The notes below the pieces were generated by a model. It searched no databases. It worked only from the letters and a program-made list of their open reading frames with translations, and was not told the DNA's origin. Below, piece by piece: positions 7,771-64,000 of a DNA stretch of 64,000 nucleotides. How positions within the stretch are numbered: the first letter of the stretch is position 1; every line of letters starts with the position of its first letter. This stretch comes from Thermoplasmatota archaeon (GTDB lineage Archaea > Thermoplasmatota > Penumbrarchaeia > Penumbrarchaeales > Penumbrarchaeaceae), in the NCBI GenBank assembly GCA_029762535.1, contig JARVGK010000009.1, forward strand, positions 1 to 64,000, read 5' to 3'. The position numbers and the translations under genes are program-made.

Positions 7771-12328
<4,558 letters not shown>

Positions 12329-12410
12329 TCACTCCGACGACAGGCCTCTCAGGAGATACACCTCGAGGTGCACCCCATCCGCATGCCTGAGGGGCATAAC
12401 ATCTTCGACT

Positions 12411-12442
12411 ATTTATATATCGCGCACGCGCGTACGCGCGCG
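12411..12442 (-). promoter_or_regulatory. putative gyrBA promoter: TATA box directly preceded by a 22-bp alternating purine-pyrimidine tract
   Basis: Minus strand reads CGCGCGCGTACGCGCGTGCGCG-ATATATAAAT, about 90 bp upstream of the gyrB ATG. Confidence 0.65.
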
Positions 12443-12634: not shown

Positions 12635-13654
12635 ATGCGATACCTGAAGCTTCCCCATGAAAAAAGAAGGGAATTCCTAATTGAATTGAAGGGATACGGC
12701 ATCCTGTATGCTCCTGTGAGTATCTCCGAGAAGAATTTCGACTACAAGAAGGTGGACGATGTCGATACCATCAGGTTCGATTACAACAGGACCGTTCTCC
12801 CTCCAAGGAAGTATTTCTTCCCCCCGAACGAGACCCTCTTCAAGTTCGACAAGAAGGACTGCCGACTCATCGATGCCTATGAGGATCCCGGCACCTTCGT
12901 CATATTCGGAATGCATCCTTGCGACATCATAGGTCTGAGGGTATTGGACTCCCGCTTCATAGACGATCAGCCTGACACCTACTACAAGCGAAGGCGGGAA
13001 AAGGGGATAATAATCGGCATAGACTGCCTGCCGGATGAATACTGCTTCTGTAACATAAGGGACGCGGATTTCGCGGACCGGGGCTTCGATCTATTCCTTC
13101 ATGAGCTGGATGACGGATACCTCATCCGGGTTGGAAGCGTCATGGGCCACAAGATCGTTGATGCGTGCGATCATCTGTTCGAGGCCATAAAGGCCGAGGA
13201 CATATCGGTGATGACACGCAAGGAGAGAGAGAAACAGGCCATGTTCCAGCATTACGAGAACTGGGATAATCTCCGCTACCTGCTTGAGCTGCAGGACTCC
13301 CACCCCCTGTGGGAGAGGGAAAGTGAAAAATGCATCAGCTGCGGCAACTGCACATTGACATGCCCCACATGCAGGTGTTACGATGTCCAGGACGTGCCCG
13401 AGCTTGATGGGAACGGGGGCAAGAGGATCCGGTTCTGGGACTCATGCCAGTACCGGGAGCACGGGCTCGTGGCCGGAGGGCATAATTTCAGGGATACAAA
13501 GCTCGATCGGTTCAAGAACCGCTACCAGTGCAAGAACGCATACTGCGAGACCATGACGATCTCCTACTGCGTCGGCTGTGGGAGATGCACCCAATTCTGC
13601 CCAACTGGGATCAATTACAGGAAGAACCTGATGGAGATAAGGGGGGATGAGTGA
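12635..13654 (+). CDS. hydB: group 3b [NiFe]-hydrogenase (sulfhydrogenase) beta subunit, Fe-S
   Basis: GMHPCD, CISCGNCTLTCPTCRC, CVGCGRCTQFCP; AGGAGG RBS. Confidence 0.9.
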   Translation: MRYLKLPHEKRREFLIELKGYGILYAPVSISEKNFDYKKVDDVDTIRFDYNRTVLPPRKYFFPPNETLFKFDKKDCRLIDAYEDPGTFVIFGMHPCDIIGLRVLDSRFIDDQPDTYYKRRREKGIIIGIDCLPDEYCFCNIRDADFADRGFDLFLHELDDGYLIRVGSVMGHKIVDACDHLFEAIKAEDISVMTRKEREKQAMFQHYENWDNLRYLLELQDSHPLWERESEKCISCGNCTLTCPTCRCYDVQDVPELDGNGGKRIRFWDSCQYREHGLVAGGHNFRDTKLDRFKNRYQCKNAYCETMTISYCVGCGRCTQFCPTGINYRKNLMEIRGDE

Positions 13655-14508
13655 TGATGCAGTCCCGGAACATCTACGACACGCATGTATGCAGGGTATT
13701 GAGGGTATATCCTCTGACCGATACGGAAAAGCTTTTCCTCTTTAGGTTCGAGGATCCCTCGATAGGAATGAACTGGCGTTTCAAACCCGGCACCTTCGTC
13801 GAGCTATCACAACCCGGGGTCGGTGAGGTCCCCATATCGATATGCTCCTCATCGATGAGGATAGGCTTCTTCGAGCTGTGCATAAGAAACGCTGGCAGGG
13901 TCACACAGAAGATACACTCCCTCAAGCCCGGAGATACCGTTGGTATACGAGGGCCATACGGGAACGGGTTCCCCATGGAGAAGTTCGAGGGCAGGGACCT
14001 GCTGCTCGTGGCGGCCGGCCTTGGCATGGCCCCGCTTCGTTCAGTATTCCTCTACGCCCTTGACAACCGGTGGCAGTTCGGCAATATCACAATAATCAAC
14101 GCCGCCAAGACCGGCCCTGAGCTTCTGTTCATGCACGAGCTCGATGCGATGCGGGACATCGCCGAGGCCGAGAACATCACCATTCTTCAAACCACCACTA
14201 GGGACGAGAGATGGGGTGGGCTCAAAGGAAGGGCCGCAACACATCTGGACAAGGTGAACGTCGATCCGAACAATACAGCCGTCGCCCTCTGTGGGCCGCC
14301 GCACATGTACAAGTCGATGTTCGAGGAGCTAATGAGAAGGGGGTTCGACCCCAGGCGAATATTCGTGACGGTCGAGAGACGGATGAAGTGCGGGGTCGGT
14401 AAATGCGGCCACTGCAATATCGGCACGGCGGCCAACTGGATGTACGTGTGCAAGGATGGCCCGGTATTCGATTACTACGACATGATATCCACTCCGGGGT
14501 TGATATGA
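13651..14508 (+). CDS. hydG: sulfhydrogenase gamma subunit (FAD/NAD(P)-binding)
   Basis: GEVPISICSS, RGPYGNGF, AGLGMAPLR, ERRMKCGVGKCGHC...VCKDGPVF. Confidence 0.9.
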   Translation: MMMQSRNIYDTHVCRVLRVYPLTDTEKLFLFRFEDPSIGMNWRFKPGTFVELSQPGVGEVPISICSSSMRIGFFELCIRNAGRVTQKIHSLKPGDTVGIRGPYGNGFPMEKFEGRDLLLVAAGLGMAPLRSVFLYALDNRWQFGNITIINAAKTGPELLFMHELDAMRDIAEAENITILQTTTRDERWGGLKGRAATHLDKVNVDPNNTAVALCGPPHMYKSMFEELMRRGFDPRRIFVTVERRMKCGVGKCGHCNIGTAANWMYVCKDGPVFDYYDMISTPGLI

Positions 14509-15321
14509 ATGGTCGAAACATGCAGCGTCTGTGAAACCAGGAAGCCTGTGGTGGGCGTATATGCCCTGACGTCGTGTTACGGCTGCCAGCTCATGATAGC
14601 AACGGTCGAGAAGATACTTCAGATATCCGAAGCCGTCACTTTCAAGAGCTTCCATATGCTGACCTCCGCAAGCTCTCATGGAAAGGTCGACATCGCCTTC
14701 GTCGAGGGATCCGTTTCCACGGAGAAGGACCTGATCGAGCTCAAGCAGATAAGGGAGGACGCTACCGTTCTCGTTGCCATCGGCGCGTGTTCAATACACG
14801 GGGGCGTTCAGAGCTGGGATCAGGGACTAAGGGATTATCCTGAGATGTACGAGAAGGTCTACGGCAATGGGGAGATCGCTTACGAGGGCCTTGCGGCGAA
14901 ACCCATCGACCACTATGTGAAAGTGGACCATTACCTCCCGGGATGCCCTCCGGACGAACGGGAGATCGTCTACTTCCTCTCGACCTTCCTCTTCGGAACC
15001 TACCCGGAACGGAAGGAGCGACCCGTATGCCATGAATGCCGCCTGGCCGGGAATCCCTGCATACTAATCGAGAAGGGGGAGATGTGTCTGGGTTCCGTCA
15101 CCACATCCGGCTGCAACGCGCTCTGCATTGGCTTCGGGATCCCCTGCATAGGATGCCGGGGGCCGACCCCTTACGATACCGCGTCGTTCGATGCCCTTGC
15201 GAAGGAGTTCAAGCGCCTTGGCAAGACCCGCGAGGAGGTCCTTGACCGCCTTTCCATCTTCGGATCCCACGATCGCAGGATGCGACAGATGGTCGAGAAG
15301 GCTTACGGAGGTGAGAAATAA
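14509..15321 (+). CDS. hydD: sulfhydrogenase delta (small) subunit
   Basis: TSCYGC, VEGSVS, IGACSIHGG, LPGCPP, VCHEC..C, CIGCRG. Confidence 0.9.
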   Translation: MVETCSVCETRKPVVGVYALTSCYGCQLMIATVEKILQISEAVTFKSFHMLTSASSHGKVDIAFVEGSVSTEKDLIELKQIREDATVLVAIGACSIHGGVQSWDQGLRDYPEMYEKVYGNGEIAYEGLAAKPIDHYVKVDHYLPGCPPDEREIVYFLSTFLFGTYPERKERPVCHECRLAGNPCILIEKGEMCLGSVTTSGCNALCIGFGIPCIGCRGPTPYDTASFDALAKEFKRLGKTREEVLDRLSIFGSHDRRMRQMVEKAYGGEK

Positions 15322-16661
15322 TGAAACAGGTGAAGATCAGCAGACCGATACTGGTTGATCATGTTGCAAGGATAGAGGGCAAGGCCGGGATAGAGGTCAT
15401 GGTCTCGAACAAACAAGTGTCCTCCGTCCAGATGAACATATTCGAGGGACCGAGGTTCTTCGAGGCCATAACCGTCGGAAAGAAGGTCGAGGATGCGGTG
15501 GCGGTATTCCCTAGGATATGCTCTTTCTGCGCCGCCGCTCACAAGATCACAGCCGTCGAGGCGGCCGAAGCAGCGCTGGGAGTCGAGCCCTCCGATCAGA
15601 CCAAAAGGCTCAGGGAGCTCCTTTACATCGGCGATTATATAGAGAGCCACGCGCTGCATCTATTCTTCCTGGCCTTCCCCGATCTTCTCGGCTATCACGA
15701 TGCCCTTTCCATGGCAGGCGATTACAGCGATACGGTGAAGGCCGGGATCGCACTCAAGGACGTGGGAGCGAGGATACAGAGCGTTATAGGGGCGAGATAC
15801 ATCCATCAGGAGAACCTCCTCATCGGAGGGTTCGGAAAGATCCCCGGCAAAGCACAGATGGGTGCGTTGAAAGATGAGCTCGCGAGCCTCAAGAGCGCAT
15901 CCGAGCTCGCGTCCGATATTCTCATCAACTTCTCCAACTGGAAGGAGCTCGATTCACCTAGACTTCATCTCGCGATCGCTCCGGACGATGGAAGGTACAC
16001 CATGTACGGCAGCCATATCCATGCATCATCGGACACCTCCTTCCCCATGAAGGATTACAGGAAGCACATCCTGGAACATGTCGTCGAGCACTCGTTCGCC
16101 AAGCACTGCAGGTACGATCCCGGCGGATCCAAAAAGAAGAACGAACCTTCGATATTCACTACAGGGGCGCTGTCCAGATATACCTTGAACAAGAGATCGC
16201 TTACGAACAGGGCAAAGGAGAGATCGATTATGAACAAGGACCATCTCGACCCGTCCAATCCTCTCTCAAACAATTTCGCCCAGGCGGTAGAGCTCATCCA
16301 CTACATCGATCTGGCCCACAATCTTGCTTCCGAGCTGGCAGAAACGATCGATGAGAATGAGAGGCCCGTTAAATACGATCCCCAAAAGGGGGGCATCGGT
16401 GCCGTGGCCACGGAGGCCCCGAGAGGCCTCCTGACCTACCTTCTCGATATCGACGGTACGGGACGGATCAAGAACGCAGACGTCATCACTCCGACAGCGA
16501 TGTTCCTTCCGATGATGGAGAAGGACGTCGGCAGGATGGCGCAGTCCCTAGTCGACGGCGGGATCTCCGATCCGAGCATAATCGCCCCGAAGCTAGAGAC
16601 CGTCGTCAGGTCCTACGATCCATGCGTCTCATGCTCGGTGCATGTTACCACGGTGAAGTGA
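15321..16661 (+). CDS. hydA: sulfhydrogenase alpha (large, NiFe) subunit
   Basis: ARIEG, L1 RICSFC, EAPRG, L2 DPCVSCSVH plus a 4-aa cleavable tail. Confidence 0.93.
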   Translation: MKQVKISRPILVDHVARIEGKAGIEVMVSNKQVSSVQMNIFEGPRFFEAITVGKKVEDAVAVFPRICSFCAAAHKITAVEAAEAALGVEPSDQTKRLRELLYIGDYIESHALHLFFLAFPDLLGYHDALSMAGDYSDTVKAGIALKDVGARIQSVIGARYIHQENLLIGGFGKIPGKAQMGALKDELASLKSASELASDILINFSNWKELDSPRLHLAIAPDDGRYTMYGSHIHASSDTSFPMKDYRKHILEHVVEHSFAKHCRYDPGGSKKKNEPSIFTTGALSRYTLNKRSLTNRAKERSIMNKDHLDPSNPLSNNFAQAVELIHYIDLAHNLASELAETIDENERPVKYDPQKGGIGAVATEAPRGLLTYLLDIDGTGRIKNADVITPTAMFLPMMEKDVGRMAQSLVDGGISDPSIIAPKLETVVRSYDPCVSCSVHVTTVK

Positions 16662-17131
16662 TGAGGCCCCTGATAGTCTCGATCGGCAACCCGTTCATGA
16701 GGGACGATGGGATCGGGCAGGCGATACTCATCGAACTCAAGGACCGGGGGGTCGATGCTGACCTGATCGATCTGGGGACGGACATGCTTCGGCTCTCACT
16801 CTACGGCGAGGGCTATTGTGACATCGTCGTACTCGATTCCTTAAGGGGGGCTGGATTGGCAGGAGAGGTCCTATCGTTCTCCGGAGAGGGGATCGTACGC
16901 TCCCTGGATTCCAGGATGAGGTCCGCCCATCGAATGGGCTCGATCGAGGCACTCGAGGTCCTGAGATCGTTTAAACAGTCCTTAAAGGGCGCCAGATTCC
17001 ATTTCGTCGGTATAGTTGCCGACGACATATCCATAGGTGAGGGCCTGACCGAGGATGTTAAGAGGGCGGTACCTGTCGCTGCGGACATCGTATGTGGTCT
17101 CTTATTCGACATCAGCGACGCGCAAGGGTGA
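16661..17131 (+). CDS. hydrogenase maturation protease
   Basis: IGNPFMRDDGIG, D.GTD, SAHRMG; start overlaps the alpha-subunit stop (TGATG). Confidence 0.9.
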   Translation: MRPLIVSIGNPFMRDDGIGQAILIELKDRGVDADLIDLGTDMLRLSLYGEGYCDIVVLDSLRGAGLAGEVLSFSGEGIVRSLDSRMRSAHRMGSIEALEVLRSFKQSLKGARFHFVGIVADDISIGEGLTEDVKRAVPVAADIVCGLLFDISDAQG

Positions 17132-29008: not shown

Positions 29009-30061
29009 GTGCGGGTCCTTGATAGGCGGGAGGATTCGGACATCCTATCCCTCAGGATCGATACGGCGGACGACCTGTACTATCTATCACAGATCATCGG
29101 CGAGGGGGATCGGGTCGGATGCCAATCCCTCCGACGGCCCGAGGCGAAGGATGACATGGTCAGGTCCGACTCCCAACCCCGGAGGCGGGTCTATCTCGTT
29201 ATCGAGGTGGAGGGGGTGGAGTTCCAGGCTTTCACTGACGCTTTGAGGATAAAGGGCAGGATAGTCGAGGGTCCGCCCGATGTGAAAGGGCATCACACTC
29301 AGGTTGTGGAGCCGGGGACCGTCATCGACCTCGCCTTCAAGGAACCCAACGGGTCGGTTCTGGAGATACTCGAGGAGGCCCTGAAGGCCTCCGACAGGCC
29401 GAACATGATAGTCATCTCGGTGGATGATTCGGACTGTAGCATATTCCGCCTCAGGGATTACGGCCTCGAGGAGGTCGAGACGCTCAATGCGGGAGCGGGA
29501 GGCAAGATGTTCCCCTCGGGTGACCGTTGGTCATCGTTGATCGGTGCTATCTGTGAGACGGTAAGGCCGATGTACATGGAGGGTATGCCGATCGTCATAT
29601 TGGGACCCTCGTTCGTTAAAGAGAGGGTCCGGGACCATCTCTTGAAGGAGATGAGGGTATCGCCTCCCCGGATAATACTGCTGTCGGCATCGAGCGGGGG
29701 GCTATCCGGTGTGAGGGAGGCCCTTAGCAAGGGCGAGAGCCTTCAGGACGTCGTTCGTGAGAACAGAGTGGTCCGGGAGTCCTCCATGGTCGATGAGCTC
29801 TTTGCCAGGATCGCCAGGGGATACGGGGCCACGTATGGCCCGGACCAGGTAAGGAAGGCGATCTCCTCGGGCGCGGTGGAGGTCCTACTCATCTCGGAGG
29901 ATCTCTTCAGGGATGAGGAGATGAGGCGCCTAATGGACGCGGCCCGCGAGATCGGAGCGTCGACCATGATAGTATCGGCGCATCACGATGCCGGAAAAAA
30001 GTTCAGCAGGATGGGCGGCCTTGCCGCATTCCTGCGATTCGATCCCGGGGGGCCCGCATGA
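29009..30061 (+). CDS. pelA: pelota/Dom34 ribosome rescue factor
   Basis: DDLYYL..GD, VEFQAFTDALRIKGRI, HHT, GPSFVKE, YG...GAVEVLL, MGGLAAFLRF. Confidence 0.92.
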   Translation: MRVLDRREDSDILSLRIDTADDLYYLSQIIGEGDRVGCQSLRRPEAKDDMVRSDSQPRRRVYLVIEVEGVEFQAFTDALRIKGRIVEGPPDVKGHHTQVVEPGTVIDLAFKEPNGSVLEILEEALKASDRPNMIVISVDDSDCSIFRLRDYGLEEVETLNAGAGGKMFPSGDRWSSLIGAICETVRPMYMEGMPIVILGPSFVKERVRDHLLKEMRVSPPRIILLSASSGGLSGVREALSKGESLQDVVRENRVVRESSMVDELFARIARGYGATYGPDQVRKAISSGAVEVLLISEDLFRDEEMRRLMDAAREIGASTMIVSAHHDAGKKFSRMGGLAAFLRFDPGGPA

Positions 30062-58800: not shown

Positions 58801-60051
58801 GATCTCACCCCCTCCGAGATCGAATGCGGCGCATACCTCGAGTTCAAGGCCGTTGTCCTGGACGACGTATCCGTCGGATCCGTTCTTGTGAATTTCAGTC
58901 ACGACGGGAAATTCTGGCAGATCCGTGAGATGGAGCATCTCGGCTCAGACGTCTATTCGTTCTCCATATATGTTAATCCGTCCTTGGAGAGCATACTCTA
59001 CAGTCTTGAGAGTTCGGACATATACGGAAATTCGGATGCTTCCGATGTGAGGACGGTAAATGTGATCGACATCCTCCCTCCGTTCTTTATCGATGACGTA
59101 TCCGACCGTGTTGCGACGACGGGTGACGAATGCCTTCTATCGGTCCGCGCCGTGGACAACATGGGTATATCCAAGCTCAGTGTGTTCTACTGGTATTCTT
59201 TCTCCGAAGTCTTCAGGAAGGACATCACCTCAAGCTTGGTCGATGACCGTTATTCTATGAATATCCGGATCCCGTCAGATTCCGATCGCCCCCTCAACTA
59301 CTACTTCGAGGCAGTTGACCTATCCGGGAACGTCAACAGGACCCCGGATCGGGTCGTCCCGGTCCTGGACGACGATCCCCCTACCATATTCGACCTGAAA
59401 TTCAACGAGACCGCCGGAACGGGCGAATCGTACATGATAACTGCATCTTTCCGGGATAATATAAGGATCGATAGTTATTCTCTTTCAGCATCGATGGGAG
59501 GATCTCCTCTTTCGAACAGGAGCATATCCGGCATGCCGGGTGAGGTCCTCTTCCTTGTGGACATTCCCGTGTACGAAGTGGGCAATCTCACGCTCTTGAT
59601 CGATGTCAGTGACAGGGCCGGTAATGTGAATTCCACCGGTATCATATCTATCCCCGTTCTTGACACGATCCCTCCCCGGATCCCTCTTATGAATTCTTTT
59701 AAGATCAGAAGCGGCGAGACCTTCGAAATATTCGTCAATGCCACAGATAATATCGGGATCGCGAGGATCGAGTGGCAGGGTCTTCCCGAGGAATTCGAGG
59801 GGGATCGCTATCGCGGATCCATAAGTAAGCCTGGATACTACGGTATAATGGTAACCGCTTATGATGAGGCGGGCAATACCGATCTGGTCATTTTCACGAT
59901 AAGGGTCGTCGATGAGGATGTTAATATCAGATTAATCATAATCGGGTTCTCAGCATTCATAGTACTTTCGATCCTAATATATCTCTTCTTTTTCTTCAAA
60001 TTCAGTAAAAGACCGGATAGAAAGAATGATGAGGCCCCTCCTTCTGAGTGA
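55801..60051 (+). CDS. giant surface protein (paralog of 49916-54259): SBBP repeats, one Fn3, Ig-like repeats, TM anchor
   Basis: Near-identical N-terminus LLLVMN.PVFGSGDPD.EIT..IPLPIPGD; STY.GG repeats; D..PP..D / A.D.SGN Ig-like repeats. Confidence 0.88.
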   Translation: MRCVVSISIALIMLLLVMNIPVFGSGDPDTEITQDIPLPIPGDVLSIVSSLASGPFIENRGQWDPSILYMISNEYGKMALAKDGIYHWVHKFERRETDPIEDAPEFEMIDSCLIKALFEGGSPSSVQGEDPVQTSYNFFLGNDSSRWASDVRGYGSVLYEDVWDGIDIHYYQKEGRVKYDLLLSPGADPDLIRMRIEGAGSIRNDGGDLIISTPIGVDLLDSGLVSYYTTGEHIPSSFLLEGNIYGFDIGPYDRTRSIVIDPLVASTYAGGTDRDIAKKVMSDDDGNWIVAGETFSTDLPVTTGVIQSIHSGKRDCAILKFDHRMKNLIFATYYGGSDNEFLNDMSLIGNDIIIGGYSNSYDLPITNGSLYESYNGNWDGFLARIDSKGSNLTFSTYIGGPEFDSVESIKVNNNNMDIYITGRISSNNYPITNNSMYKENLYYGFLSILSSDCSEFIYSTYFSAGSFIELMDNGYVVIAVSNSIRDYPTTPGSYDTTHNGNVDIYIACFDIQNNSYIFATYIGGVENDIVVSMNIDMNNNIYITGTTYSNNFPVTSDAYSRKKDDTFVSVLSSDGKYLLHSTFIGGSDIEVVSSIALDGQGYPFITGYTRSGDYPTTWGSYDRSYNQGIDSFITSFDRNLSYLRYSTYFGGSSNDYALDIYMDELDQAVIAGETYSSDLPTVWGCYDVTWNGHYDMFISVINISTPPSEPLSLSGDISDGCISLEWDPPLSNGGANITGYNIYRGRTADNMSSVARGVQTLSYDDRTIVNGRSYVYHVTAVNAAGESNASDNVTVFDDMVPIFLSDLTPESVNNGDMLFFSVIVSDNVLVTEVSLSFRIDDGDSDKVDMVRDGIFWNHSTTVPNEHIRFVHYRFTAADPSGNSNSTKEKSILIIDSEPPLLHSFNVPSVVKPERTVSLDLATSDNVGVLSAEVEHWYDDVSPVICPLVRKDGMKWGLNLSAPPVQTVWRIVFHSHDGTNRASSDLFNVSVIDSDPPTFLDDLTPSEIECGAYLEFKAVVLDDVSVGSVLVNFSHDGKFWQIREMEHLGSDVYSFSIYVNPSLESILYSLESSDIYGNSDASDVRTVNVIDILPPFFIDDVSDRVATTGDECLLSVRAVDNMGISKLSVFYWYSFSEVFRKDITSSLVDDRYSMNIRIPSDSDRPLNYYFEAVDLSGNVNRTPDRVVPVLDDDPPTIFDLKFNETAGTGESYMITASFRDNIRIDSYSLSASMGGSPLSNRSISGMPGEVLFLVDIPVYEVGNLTLLIDVSDRAGNVNSTGIISIPVLDTIPPRIPLMNSFKIRSGETFEIFVNATDNIGIARIEWQGLPEEFEGDRYRGSISKPGYYGIMVTAYDEAGNTDLVIFTIRVVDEDVNIRLIIIGFSAFIVLSILIYLFFFFKFSKRPDRKNDEAPPSE

Positions 60052-60057
60052 ATCGTT

Positions 60058-63000
60058 TCATAAATACAATTGACGCGCTGGTCCATTATCGATATAAATT
60101 ATCGGTGCGGTTTTCCATTCATCAATAGGGGATGGCCATTTCTTGTTCCAAGGACATACAAACATATCAGAATCTTTATTTGCCAAGCATGCACTGGTAA
60201 AATAAGCGGCTTCATTGAATGATATAATATAATCTATCAGGTATTGATCCCATATAATATCCCTATTATTATTTACTGAACTCACACCATCAGCATTTAA
60301 AACATCTCTGCCCCATGGATCTTCCTGTGTTAGGTGATTCCCTCGGTCCTCCCCAAATAATTCATTTTCTATATAATAATTAGCTTCATTTTCTCCTTTA
60401 ATTCTACTATAGAACATTACATTGTATCTGTATGATGTATCTGTTTCTCTCGATGAAGTCATAATGATCGATGATATTTCTTTTAGGTCATTAACAAAAC
60501 CACCTGAATAGCAGAAATCTAAAAGGAGTATCGATTCTTTATATGAAATATTTTCCAATTCTTCTTTCAAATCTGTATCCCACCAAATGTATTTAAAGAT
60601 TTGAAATCTTCCTCCGACAATACTATCATAATCCAAATCATCAGATAATCCCACATAATCAAATTTCCTGAATGGATCATCTTCAACAAATTCATGCGTT
60701 GCAAAACCTTCGTCAATATCAATATAATCATCAAGATCCTCTATGTATGCTAAACTGAACTCTCCTTGTCGATCCCCTTCTGCATGTATATCGTCTTGAT
60801 TCAAATCAACTCCAGTCAAATGTAATATCCTTGATGTTGAATTGTAATCATAACAATAATGCATAGTATTATTCTCATCGATCCATGCTGCTTTAACTTG
60901 CGCATCCCATTGATCATTACCCATTGGATTATATCCGTTTGTGTGATTTACTTCTCTAAATGTTCCGTTAATATATAATCTCCACCACCATTCATTTAGA
61001 TTTTGTACTAAATATATTTCTTCCATAATACTGTCATGGTTTATGTCGAATAACCAACAAAAATTTGGATCACCTTTAATATCAGGAAATTCTATAGGAT
61101 CGTTATTAAGAGGTATACCTGGACCTACTTGTTCTTGTAATGTCGTCCTCATAAAATAATATAATTCAATGGCAAATTCCTGTTCACTAATATCAGCAAA
61201 ATCTTCATGTTCATCATAATGATTTTCATCACCATTTAAGACGGTCCTACATCTACCATTTCTCCATCCAAAATCCCATTCTTCCGAATTTTTATCCCAA
61301 ATCGAATTATCATTTACATCTCCGTTATATCTAGGATCATCTTTGTAACCAACACCATGATTCCTTAATTCTATAAATATAATGTCATTCTCATCCAATT
61401 TTGGTACTATGTGATACTCGTCTATTCGTTCATTTATTTCGACTCCTCCTTCGTGATATGTAGTTTTTTGATGATATATACATGCGGGACCTCCATATTC
61501 CAATGCATCCAAAATATTTTTTAAACAGCCTTTATATGGACAACCATCCAACCAATAAGCTGTATCAGAACCACTATTTTTATATTTGTTATCATCTGTA
61601 TCATAAATCCACTCACCCTGAAATTCTTCAGGTGTTAGGTCAAAATAAAAGGACATGAATAAAACATCTTCGTCTTTCCAACCATTTGAAGATAAATAAT
61701 GTCTCATCATGGTAATATCATAAGTAAATTGAATTTCTTTAGGATGAAATATAGGTGCCATTAAAATCGCAATTCTAGAATTATGAATCATTGAATTATA
61801 TTGGATCGAATTATATGATCTTGATATTTCATAACAATCAGATATTCCGTCAGAATCTCTATCCTCTCTGAAATTCTTATAACCAGATGTTATAATAACT
61901 TCATCCATAAACCCATGAAAAAATGGTGTTTGATAAATATCCCCCCATATATTATCAGGACATCCTCCAATGTAATATTTATTTATTTCAGTTTGTACTA
62001 AATTTTCTTCAAAAATAATAGGATCATTACCTGAATAATAACAAAAATGTTTTGAATCCCAAAAACCGTTAATATACATATTTATAGTATCGTATAAATA
62101 ATGTGGTGAATTTTTTCCTTCTATTGAATATGCAACATGAGTCCAATCATAATTTTTTGATAAAAAGCCTTTTGAATAAATAATACTTTCTGTTGAAGTT
62201 TGAATATATAACCTATATCTGTTACCCATCTGTTCATATTTTAAACCAAATACAACAGGATAATTTTGATAATTCTCTGATGAATAAGGACAGACAGATA
62301 TAATTTGATCATCGTTGGTATCTATTATTTTTATCCATGCTTCAAATGTATGAACCCTAGGAATAAACACGTTGCCTACAAGATAATCGTTATTAGAATT
62401 AAAAAACACACATTTCCCGTATTTACCATTATTATTAATTGTTGGTCCTTCTCCTATCATGCCGATTTCACAATCTTCGCTAAAATATGAACTATCGATT
62501 GTAATTGATCCATCGTCAAATGTGAAGTGTTGTTTTATTATATTAACTTTCAAGGCATAATTATATATTTCAAAGTTATCTAACATTCCATGATAACCAT
62601 ATTCATTACCTCTACTACCAATAAAAATATCTTCTTCAGCAGGATATAGATTGATCACACCAAGATCCTTGCTTTTATCCAATTGACCATTTATGTATAT
62701 ATAACCCATCTGATCTTTTAATATGAACTGAATTTTATACCATTTCTCCATGGTTAAAGTACTATTTGAGGTTATTGATATTATCTTTCCATAATCGATA
62801 TTACCAATATCTTTTACAACATCGATCTTTAATTTATTATTGTTTGTGATCATTGCTTGAAATTGGCCTGCTCGATATTGTGGATCAATATATAATTGAT
62901 CATTAATATTAGAGAAAATAATTCTATCATTAGAAAACGGTTTTATATCAAATTTCATTGTCATTTCAGATTTAATATTGAAGCTATTATTATATGGTAT

Positions 63001-64000
63001 TTTTATATATTGTTTTGTTTCATAATCAACATCATCAAAATCAATACAGTTACCTGAAATGCCGTTATTATCCCAATTTGGATTAAAATTCTGCAAATAA
63101 TAGATTGTTGAATCATCAATGTTATCAGGATATGTATCATTTTCATCGACATAAATATAATATAAATCATTATTTTGATCATATCCCATTCCTTTAACTT
63201 CCTTTTCCATTCCTTGATTCGTACCTCCTATTATAGTGACATGAGCATCATAAAGAGGGAAACCGAACGGATAACATGCATATTTATATATCTTATAATC
63301 ATTATCTGAAGTATCTAATGTATTGGCAGCGCGATACATCAATGATTCTCCGAGATAAGCATTATTATTGAAATTAGTTTGATCTGATGATAATGGACCT
63401 CCACCTTCATTGAAATCAAGTTTCAAAACAGGTAATTCTAAATTTATTGGACGATATTTAGTAATAGGAGATTTATAAGAACACATAGTAAATTCATCCA
63501 AAATACCTCTAAAAAATTCATCACCATCACTTCCCAAATATAAAGAATGATATTGTCCGGGACCGGTGTTATTAAAATAATATAACGGATCACCCTGTAT
63601 AATTGAAGAATCATATAATACTCCATCTAAATATATACCAATCATTGGTTCTTGTATATTATCAAGCTGCATATGCAACCCTATTGTTGACCAAGTGTTT
63701 TCTTTATTTAAGTAAGGAGTACTAACAATATTCTCATATAAATTGCCATTATAGTAACTGTTAAATATTAATTTATATCTAATAACTTTTATGTTAGCAT
63801 CCTTTTCTATGATAAGTTTCCAAGATTCATAAGATATGATTAATGAAGTCGTTTCTACATCCATAAAATAAGGAAATACCATTATTTCAATGTGGATATT
63901 ATTATCGTACATACTATATGGATGATAAATATGATATTCAAAACCATTATTATTAAATTCAAACGCTCTTCCGTAGGGCGTAGTAGAGACAATAGATGGA
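60058..64000 (-). CDS. very large LamG/ConA-like multi-domain protein with a C-terminal clan CD (C13/caspase-like) peptidase; 5' end outside window
   Basis: LamG motifs (W.H...Y..MYING, F.G.LDE), IFIELRNHG and LLLDFCYSGGF catalytic-dyad motifs; frame stays open from 63912 to 64000; strongly AT-rich. Confidence 0.75.
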   Translation of the reverse strand, partial: PSIVSTTPYGRAFEFNNNGFEYHIYHPYSMYDNNIHIEIMVFPYFMDVETTSLIISYESWKLIIEKDANIKVIRYKLIFNSYYNGNLYENIVSTPYLNKENTWSTIGLHMQLDNIQEPMIGIYLDGVLYDSSIIQGDPLYYFNNTGPGQYHSLYLGSDGDEFFRGILDEFTMCSYKSPITKYRPINLELPVLKLDFNEGGGPLSSDQTNFNNNAYLGESLMYRAANTLDTSDNDYKIYKYACYPFGFPLYDAHVTIIGGTNQGMEKEVKGMGYDQNNDLYYIYVDENDTYPDNIDDSTIYYLQNFNPNWDNNGISGNCIDFDDVDYETKQYIKIPYNNSFNIKSEMTMKFDIKPFSNDRIIFSNINDQLYIDPQYRAGQFQAMITNNNKLKIDVVKDIGNIDYGKIISITSNSTLTMEKWYKIQFILKDQMGYIYINGQLDKSKDLGVINLYPAEEDIFIGSRGNEYGYHGMLDNFEIYNYALKVNIIKQHFTFDDGSITIDSSYFSEDCEIGMIGEGPTINNNGKYGKCVFFNSNNDYLVGNVFIPRVHTFEAWIKIIDTNDDQIISVCPYSSENYQNYPVVFGLKYEQMGNRYRLYIQTSTESIIYSKGFLSKNYDWTHVAYSIEGKNSPHYLYDTINMYINGFWDSKHFCYYSGNDPIIFEENLVQTEINKYYIGGCPDNIWGDIYQTPFFHGFMDEVIITSGYKNFREDRDSDGISDCYEISRSYNSIQYNSMIHNSRIAILMAPIFHPKEIQFTYDITMMRHYLSSNGWKDEDVLFMSFYFDLTPEEFQGEWIYDTDDNKYKNSGSDTAYWLDGCPYKGCLKNILDALEYGGPACIYHQKTTYHEGGVEINERIDEYHIVPKLDENDIIFIELRNHGVGYKDDPRYNGDVNDNSIWDKNSEEWDFGWRNGRCRTVLNGDENHYDEHEDFADISEQEFAIELYYFMRTTLQEQVGPGIPLNNDPIEFPDIKGDPNFCWLFDINHDSIMEEIYLVQNLNEWWWRLYINGTFREVNHTNGYNPMGNDQWDAQVKAAWIDENNTMHYCYDYNSTSRILHLTGVDLNQDDIHAEGDRQGEFSLAYIEDLDDYIDIDEGFATHEFVEDDPFRKFDYVGLSDDLDYDSIVGGRFQIFKYIWWDTDLKEELENISYKESILLLDFCYSGGFVNDLKEISSIIMTSSRETDTSYRYNVMFYSRIKGENEANYYIENELFGEDRGNHLTQEDPWGRDVLNADGVSSVNNNRDIIWDQYLIDYIISFNEAAYFTSACLANKDSDMFVCPWNKKWPSPIDEWKTAPIIYIDNGPARQLYL

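Follow-up and report, generated by a model that had tools for sequence, protein, structure and literature searches.

Supercoiling-dependent alternating purine-pyrimidine tracts have been described from a few settings that bear on the locus reported here. Among the closest is the RY element of the Halobacterium bop promoter; Yang, Kim, Molinari and DasSarma (1996, J Bacteriol 178:840) are said to have found this promoter stimulated by supercoiling, and the element is reportedly 11 bp long, overlaps the TATA box and needs activators. The tract in the gyrBA promoter of the present uncultured Thermoplasmatota archaeon resembles it as an alternating tract in an archaeal core promoter, proposed to be Z-like under supercoiling, and differs in being longer and CG-rich, in standing at a gene of the enzyme that makes supercoils and in recurring in two phyla. 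The two also differ in direction: bop is reported to be stimulated by supercoiling (reversed in strain R1), whereas the gyrB tract is predicted to repress, and as an analogy the bop precedent points to activation rather than repression. Engineered (CG)n inserts in plasmids of E. coli and Halobacterium reportedly adopt the Z form (Kim, Yang, DasSarma, 1996, JBC 271:9340); this indicates that the flipping of short CG tracts in an archaeal plasmid depends on their length and on supercoiling, but the inserts are artificial and have no regulatory role. Eukaryotic promoter Z-DNA elements likewise place Z-prone tracts near start sites with negative supercoils as the driver, but they work mostly through activation, nucleosome exclusion or Z-alpha proteins, whereas no Z-alpha domain (PF02295) was found in the present genome, which is 93% complete. 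That absence is no proof of a "protein-free" switch. In vivo evidence that Z-DNA plays a regulatory part in prokaryotes has been called limited by a 2026 review (PMC13463272).

Relaxation-stimulated transcription of gyrase follows the same homeostatic logic at the same genes, and the haloarchaeal promoters in which it occurs carry the tract. In bacteria, gyr promoters react to relaxation although they have no such tracts, and these cases are explained by the -10/discriminator sequence or by a leader palindrome. The reviews consulted name no cis element and leave Z-DNA unmentioned. Among archaea, novobiocin induces the gyrase genes of Haloferax and Halobacterium (PMC8643681); in Halobacterium, gyrA rose 3.4- and 7.5-fold and gyrB 1.8- and 1.6-fold, and topA and top6B also rose about 2-fold (PMC3184054, supplement 8). 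The novobiocin response that the original prediction looked for is therefore already published for haloarchaea, in the predicted direction, although these data do not implicate the tract itself. Homeostatic control of plasmid supercoiling has been published for H. volcanii, and archaeal control of bacterial-type gyrase homeostasis has been called poorly understood (PMC9348778). No paper linking Z-DNA to archaeal gyrase promoters surfaced in the literature searched, which took in neither Yang et al. (1996) nor Holmes and Dyall-Smith (1991).

The window, meaning the whole stretch of 64,000 nucleotides that was analysed, contains the gyrase genes and the features listed in Table 1. The original prediction had described a perfect purine-pyrimidine alternation of 22 bp with a 14-bp palindrome inside it, and both are present in the sequence, the palindrome at 12427-12440. 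It had further described the tract as directly abutting the promoter element on the gyrB (minus) strand; the tract is indeed followed directly by ATATATAAATAG, while the TATA box proper begins 1 or 3 bp off. The tract lies 99 bp upstream of gyrB. Read as 11 dinucleotides in pyrimidine-purine phase, it comprises nine CG, one TA and one TG/CA; a Z element is a mostly CG alternation of at least 8-12 bp, and here there are 22 bp with 9/11 dinucleotides CG. No A-rich BRE stands in front of the gyrBA TATA-like box, at the upstream edge of which the model predicts a B-Z junction. Both gyrase genes score above their NCBIfam cut-offs (Table 1). The coordinates of gyrA are those of the longest ORF, and its real start may be internal. 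A Logan contig of the probable source sample, which is not independent of the assembly, showed no differences from it. At the far end of the window (60001-64000) the GC content falls to 28-33%, versus 53% genome-wide, and this part is probably a foreign island.

Table 1. Features of the gyrBA promoter region, with coordinates in the window
Feature	Position	Strand	Basis
CG-rich alternating purine-pyrimidine tract, predicted B-Z switch over the BRE position	12421..12442	.	Sequence, Z model
TATA-like box of gyrBA, TATATAAATA	12410..12419	-	Same place as TTTAWA in relatives
Putative transcription start region	12386..12392	-	Usual archaeal TATA-to-start spacing
Conserved leader motif, family consensus GGGATGCAC, here GGGGTGCAC	12367..12379	-	43-50 bp after TATA
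gyrB, DNA gyrase subunit B	10397..12322	-	TIGR01059, 994 bits (cut-off 882)
gyrA, DNA gyrase subunit A	7771..10407	-	TIGR01063, 1108 bits (cut-off 877)
Sulfhydrogenase-like NiFe hydrogenase operon with maturation protease, divergent	12635..17131	+	

The earlier impression that nothing comparable lies elsewhere in the window holds for the entire genome, in which the tract is the longest alternating run in 2.96 Mb and the runner-up has 17 bp. Alternation by itself is not extraordinary at this length, as Markov models of order 1-5 predict 0.11-0.14 runs of 22 bp of any letters per genome; if no more than three A/T bases are allowed, the expectation drops to between 4e-5 and 1e-7. The model of the B-Z transition took K as 2200RT/N, allowed 0.4 turn for each junction and assumed a 5-kb domain. 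Dinucleotide energies and the junction cost of 5 kcal/mol were those of PMC3024258. In this model 20.1 kcal/mol is needed to flip the tract, which then takes up about 4.7 turns; in the genome-wide ranking that the original prediction had proposed the tract comes first, with a sigma_c of -0.037 and a modelled midpoint of about -0.036. The second site (C36:15760; sigma_c -0.039) is a Cys-Ala coding repeat within a gene, and the remaining Z sites need -0.044 or more. When competing Z sites in 5 kb are included, modelled occupancy is 0.01 at sigma -0.030, 0.41 at -0.035 and 0.98 at -0.040. The tract is predicted to flip at a plausible sigma and ahead of its competitors, under a model without melting or proteins. 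Because melting, bound proteins and salt are omitted, these figures rank sites and do not measure; melting is known to compete with the B-Z transition (PMC3343103). If free supercoiling lay steadily beyond -0.045, the tract would be permanently flipped. In GC-rich genomes of two other Thermoplasmatota families (f35, f11) the gyrB tract ranks first in 200 kb. That of H. volcanii ranks third in 400 kb and is not unique as a Z site; of the 17 strong sites there, no other adjoins a TATA-like run. The ORF behind the second-ranked site of the present genome (544 aa, C36:15745-17379, minus; L176) ends in a Gly-rich linker and the Cys-Ala repeat (CACACACACGG) and overlaps the next gene.

Orthologous gyrB promoters keep the tract across two archaeal phyla, as the original prediction required of related archaea. 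In the following, f1 denotes the host's own family, G000 the genome studied and f11 a Methanomethylophilus-like family. A CG-rich alternating tract stands just 5′ of a TTTAWA-like box before gyrB in 22/22 f1 genomes from seven genera, which are all those of the family with enough upstream DNA, against 0/318 control windows at the same cut-off; among the listed f1 members, nearly every CG-rich run of at least 17 bp is the gyrB tract. The top6B and topA promoters of f1 have no such tract. Six further Thermoplasmatota families carry it before gyrB, namely f35 (13/15), f11 (4/4) and, with single loci, f16, f34, f37 and f38; it is absent from gyrB in the other families of the host's class and in many other gyrase-bearing families, some of them GC-rich. 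Among loci sampled from the phylum to which Archaeoglobaceae and the haloarchaea belong, the tract was found at 15/15 loci of the haloarchaeal GyrB clade, its bearers including Haloferax, Natrinema, Halorubrum, Halococcoides and Halodesulfurarchaeum, and at 0/55 of the other Halobacteriota gyrB loci. All 22 Haloferax genomes have it, H. volcanii included, where it occupies chromosome positions 1,441,341-1,441,356. The Z cut-off (-0.0435) was set after the first data and was applied blind only to 29 gyrB loci of Halobacteriaceae; 28 passed, five of them already seen, compared with 0.23% of 1772 control windows, and 21 distinct tract cores were represented. One of 79 mostly bacterial gyrB loci passes, in line with the 1.5% background. 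The related genomes in all of these counts are not independent samples, and the GyrB tree requires 3 to 10 gains or losses of the tract, a range that it does not narrow at depth. We hold the tract to be a real, selected, gyrB-specific element of the presumed promoter, spanning two archaeal phyla.

Several observations were made alongside. Two genomes have two gyrB copies each, G228 (L053, L089) and G022 (L016, L079), through duplication or binning contamination, and both copies of G228 carry the tract. In a Methanomethylophilus-like genome (G072; L315-L323) shorter CG tracts of 8-18 bp stand before a number of further AT-rich sites that resemble promoters, which may form a graded series sensitive to topology. 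Low-GC families of the host's class (L026, L027, L062, L069, L072) have AT-rich alternating runs of up to 24 bp before gyrB in place of CG tracts; these are poor Z formers and possibly a melting- or cruciform-type counterpart.

Within the conserved tracts, length ranges over 12-36 bp and the distance to TATA over 0-12 bp. The 46 distinct linkers between CG runs include 40 that alternate, five in-phase CC/GG, the cheapest break in the B-Z energy table, one other break and no phase shift, whereas background linkers retain alternation in 1/177 and 7/384 cases, a contrast that is inflated by choosing loci by Z score, although f1 and the haloarchaea were taken whole. The f1 tracts show a single transversion break. 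Alternation and phase are preserved while letters, length and spacing drift, which is what selection on a Z element would leave. Mutation bias does not explain the kept alternation, since only 40% of the changes at gyrB fourfold sites are transitions and the genome shows no CpG depletion (CG o/e 0.97; CGCG o/e 0.8); decay through CpG methylation was rejected on the same ratios. No pure CG run is longer than six repeats, and such runs fall short of those in shuffled tracts (p=2e-5), as expected if long ones are unstable or flip too early. Longer tracts contain costlier dinucleotides (rho 0.36 overall and 0.64 in f1, among kin that are not independent). Across the conserved tracts sigma_c spans a narrow range, -0.035 to -0.043, which we do not claim as tuning because it is bounded by the cut-off and by the shape of the function.

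The original prediction had tied the element to the BRE position. This position is not essential, because f35 carries the tract 3′ of the TATA-like box, where it fills the spacer to the leader; in two tract-less relatives the TATA-like box lies at an equal distance from the same leader hairpin. A canonical BRE is short, A-rich, at a fixed distance and common, whereas the tract is GC-rich, variable in length and spacing, and unique among 774 TATA-plus-ORF sites. The topA promoters of f1 possess an ordinary A-rich BRE and gyrB is without one. A general GC-rich upstream element in G000 was considered and rejected, CG counts before TATA boxes not being raised. Only one TATA-like box is conserved before gyrB. 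In haloarchaea it is found 32-39 bp ahead of the ATG, where the box of a transcript with a short leader usually stands, and in f1 it precedes the leader motif at the distance given in Table 1. A dRNA-seq table for H. volcanii contains top6B and no primary start for gyrB. A leader motif of the GGGATGCA type occurs once in G000 at that distance from a TATA box and recurs before gyrB across Thermoplasmatota (L002-L023, L034, L036, L039, L040, L049, L073, L084), also at loci without the Z tract. In genus g53 of f35 it forms the loop of a hairpin whose stem, judged by eye, apparently covaries. The motif is possibly a second regulatory element, acting as DNA or RNA. A search of Rfam gave no match.

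The gene divergent from gyrB varies among relatives (gltX, hydrogenase, top6B or a thiC-like gene), and because this neighbour changes while the tract stays, the tract belongs to gyrB; membership of the divergent hydrogenase operon was rejected for the same reason. That operon could nevertheless feed negative supercoils into the tract. Here it sits between gltX and gyrB, and at L013 too it faces gyrB, while in the other relatives examined gltX is directly divergent from gyrB. In several haloarchaea (L249, L250, L251, L259, L267) gyrB and top6B diverge, 140-250 bp apart, with the tract between both promoters. The gene upstream of top6B has a 10-bp tract before it that is not conserved in 19 relatives. 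The f1 top6B promoters (L326-L348; in G000 at C22, about 29260-29290, minus) have in common a block rich in pyrimidines, similar to TTCTTTCRCCYACCCC, immediately 5′ of TATA, and Haloferax top6B (L261-L282) has a similar TTCACTTTCAC block; either this is a conserved element at the promoter of the counterpart enzyme or it is the terminator of the upstream gene.

We judge it slightly likelier true than false that the tract is a supercoil-driven B-Z switch which represses gyrBA. With local DNA relaxed, the tract would be in B-form, TBP, TFB and RNA polymerase would assemble, and gyrase would be made. Once unconstrained negative supercoiling passed roughly sigma -0.035 to -0.04, aided by divergent transcription where this is present, the tract would flip to left-handed Z-DNA, and the TATA box would have a B-Z junction at its edge. 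The flip would remove the B-form surface needed by TFB (upstream type) or by RNA polymerase (downstream type, f35), and the Z form would absorb about 4.7 turns of twist that otherwise help to open the promoter. With a junction at the TATA edge and the local twist drained, initiation would therefore drop; gyrBA transcription would fall and a negative-feedback loop would be closed. We infer Z formation in the cell, repression by the Z form and the absence of a reader protein. A wider proposal, that such a protein-free B-to-Z switch shuts the gyrase promoter and thereby sets the supercoiling set-point of many archaea, having arisen or moved more than once (to either side of TATA), with the interruptions tuning the threshold, is offered tentatively, and we would not quite expect it to hold; if it did, this would be a rare case in prokaryotes of Z-DNA with a regulatory function under selection.

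A protein binding site that regulates gyrBA, whether for a repressor, for a TFB paralogue that recognises a GC-rich element or for a reader of CG repeats or Z-DNA, seems unlikely to us. In its favour the 22 Haloferax genomes share a near-invariant 16-mer with a conserved block just upstream of it, which is operator-like; a GYGCG end recurs 3-6 bp before TATA in haloarchaea and f1; and the conserved leader motif shows that sequence-specific elements exist at gyrB. However, the interruptions move, the spacing shifts by a full helical turn, there is one site per genome and no Z-alpha domain was found in this 93%-complete genome; because length, spacing and side of TATA all vary, a shape signal fits better than an operator. 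Somewhat less probable again is an effect exerted in B-form, in which a stiff GC-rich block stands in for the A-rich BRE or takes up the spacer from TATA to the start, so that complex assembly or opening responds to twist while the tract does not flip to Z. The lack at gyrB of the A-rich BRE seen at f1 topA promoters speaks for it, as does the f35 tract, which fills the region that must open; but strict alternation and phase are unnecessary for GC richness, and a GC-rich melting region would give a promoter that needs supercoiling, contrary to the induction on relaxation that has been published.

Z-DNA might also form and act the other way, keeping histones or chromatin proteins off the promoter or absorbing the supercoils of divergent transcription. 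The title of the bop study (Yang et al. 1996) reports stimulation by supercoiling together with a non-B structure, and the upstream gene is divergent in f1 and several haloarchaea. We nevertheless hold activation or buffering to be improbable, as haloarchaeal gyrase transcripts rise on relaxation and a Z segment between TATA and start, as in f35, could hardly activate. Extrusion of the palindrome as a cruciform or hairpin is a shade more improbable as the active structure. When compared with shuffles of dinucleotide order, the f1 tracts fold better (mean quantile 0.21), but there is no excess in f35 (0.51), haloarchaea (0.65), genus g5 (0.96) or this genome (0.50), and hairpin symmetry seems not to be generally selected. 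The central interruptions also shorten pure CG runs, and a 20-bp cruciform relieves about 2 turns versus 4.7 for the Z form. CG repeats slip easily and transitions preserve alternation, as a neutral microsatellite would show, but a single site in each genome, invariably beside the gyrB TATA-like box and in two phyla, makes a microsatellite or an assembly artefact hardly credible.

With the proposed B-Z switch two questions become testable, both of them in Haloferax volcanii: whether selection has given Z-DNA a regulatory task in prokaryotes, and how a bacterial gyrase was brought under homeostatic control with the archaeal TBP/TFB machinery. If the switch is real, it would be a minimal feedback sensor made of DNA only, and free supercoiling in archaeal cells could be calibrated with the natural variants of the tract, which form a series already at hand.
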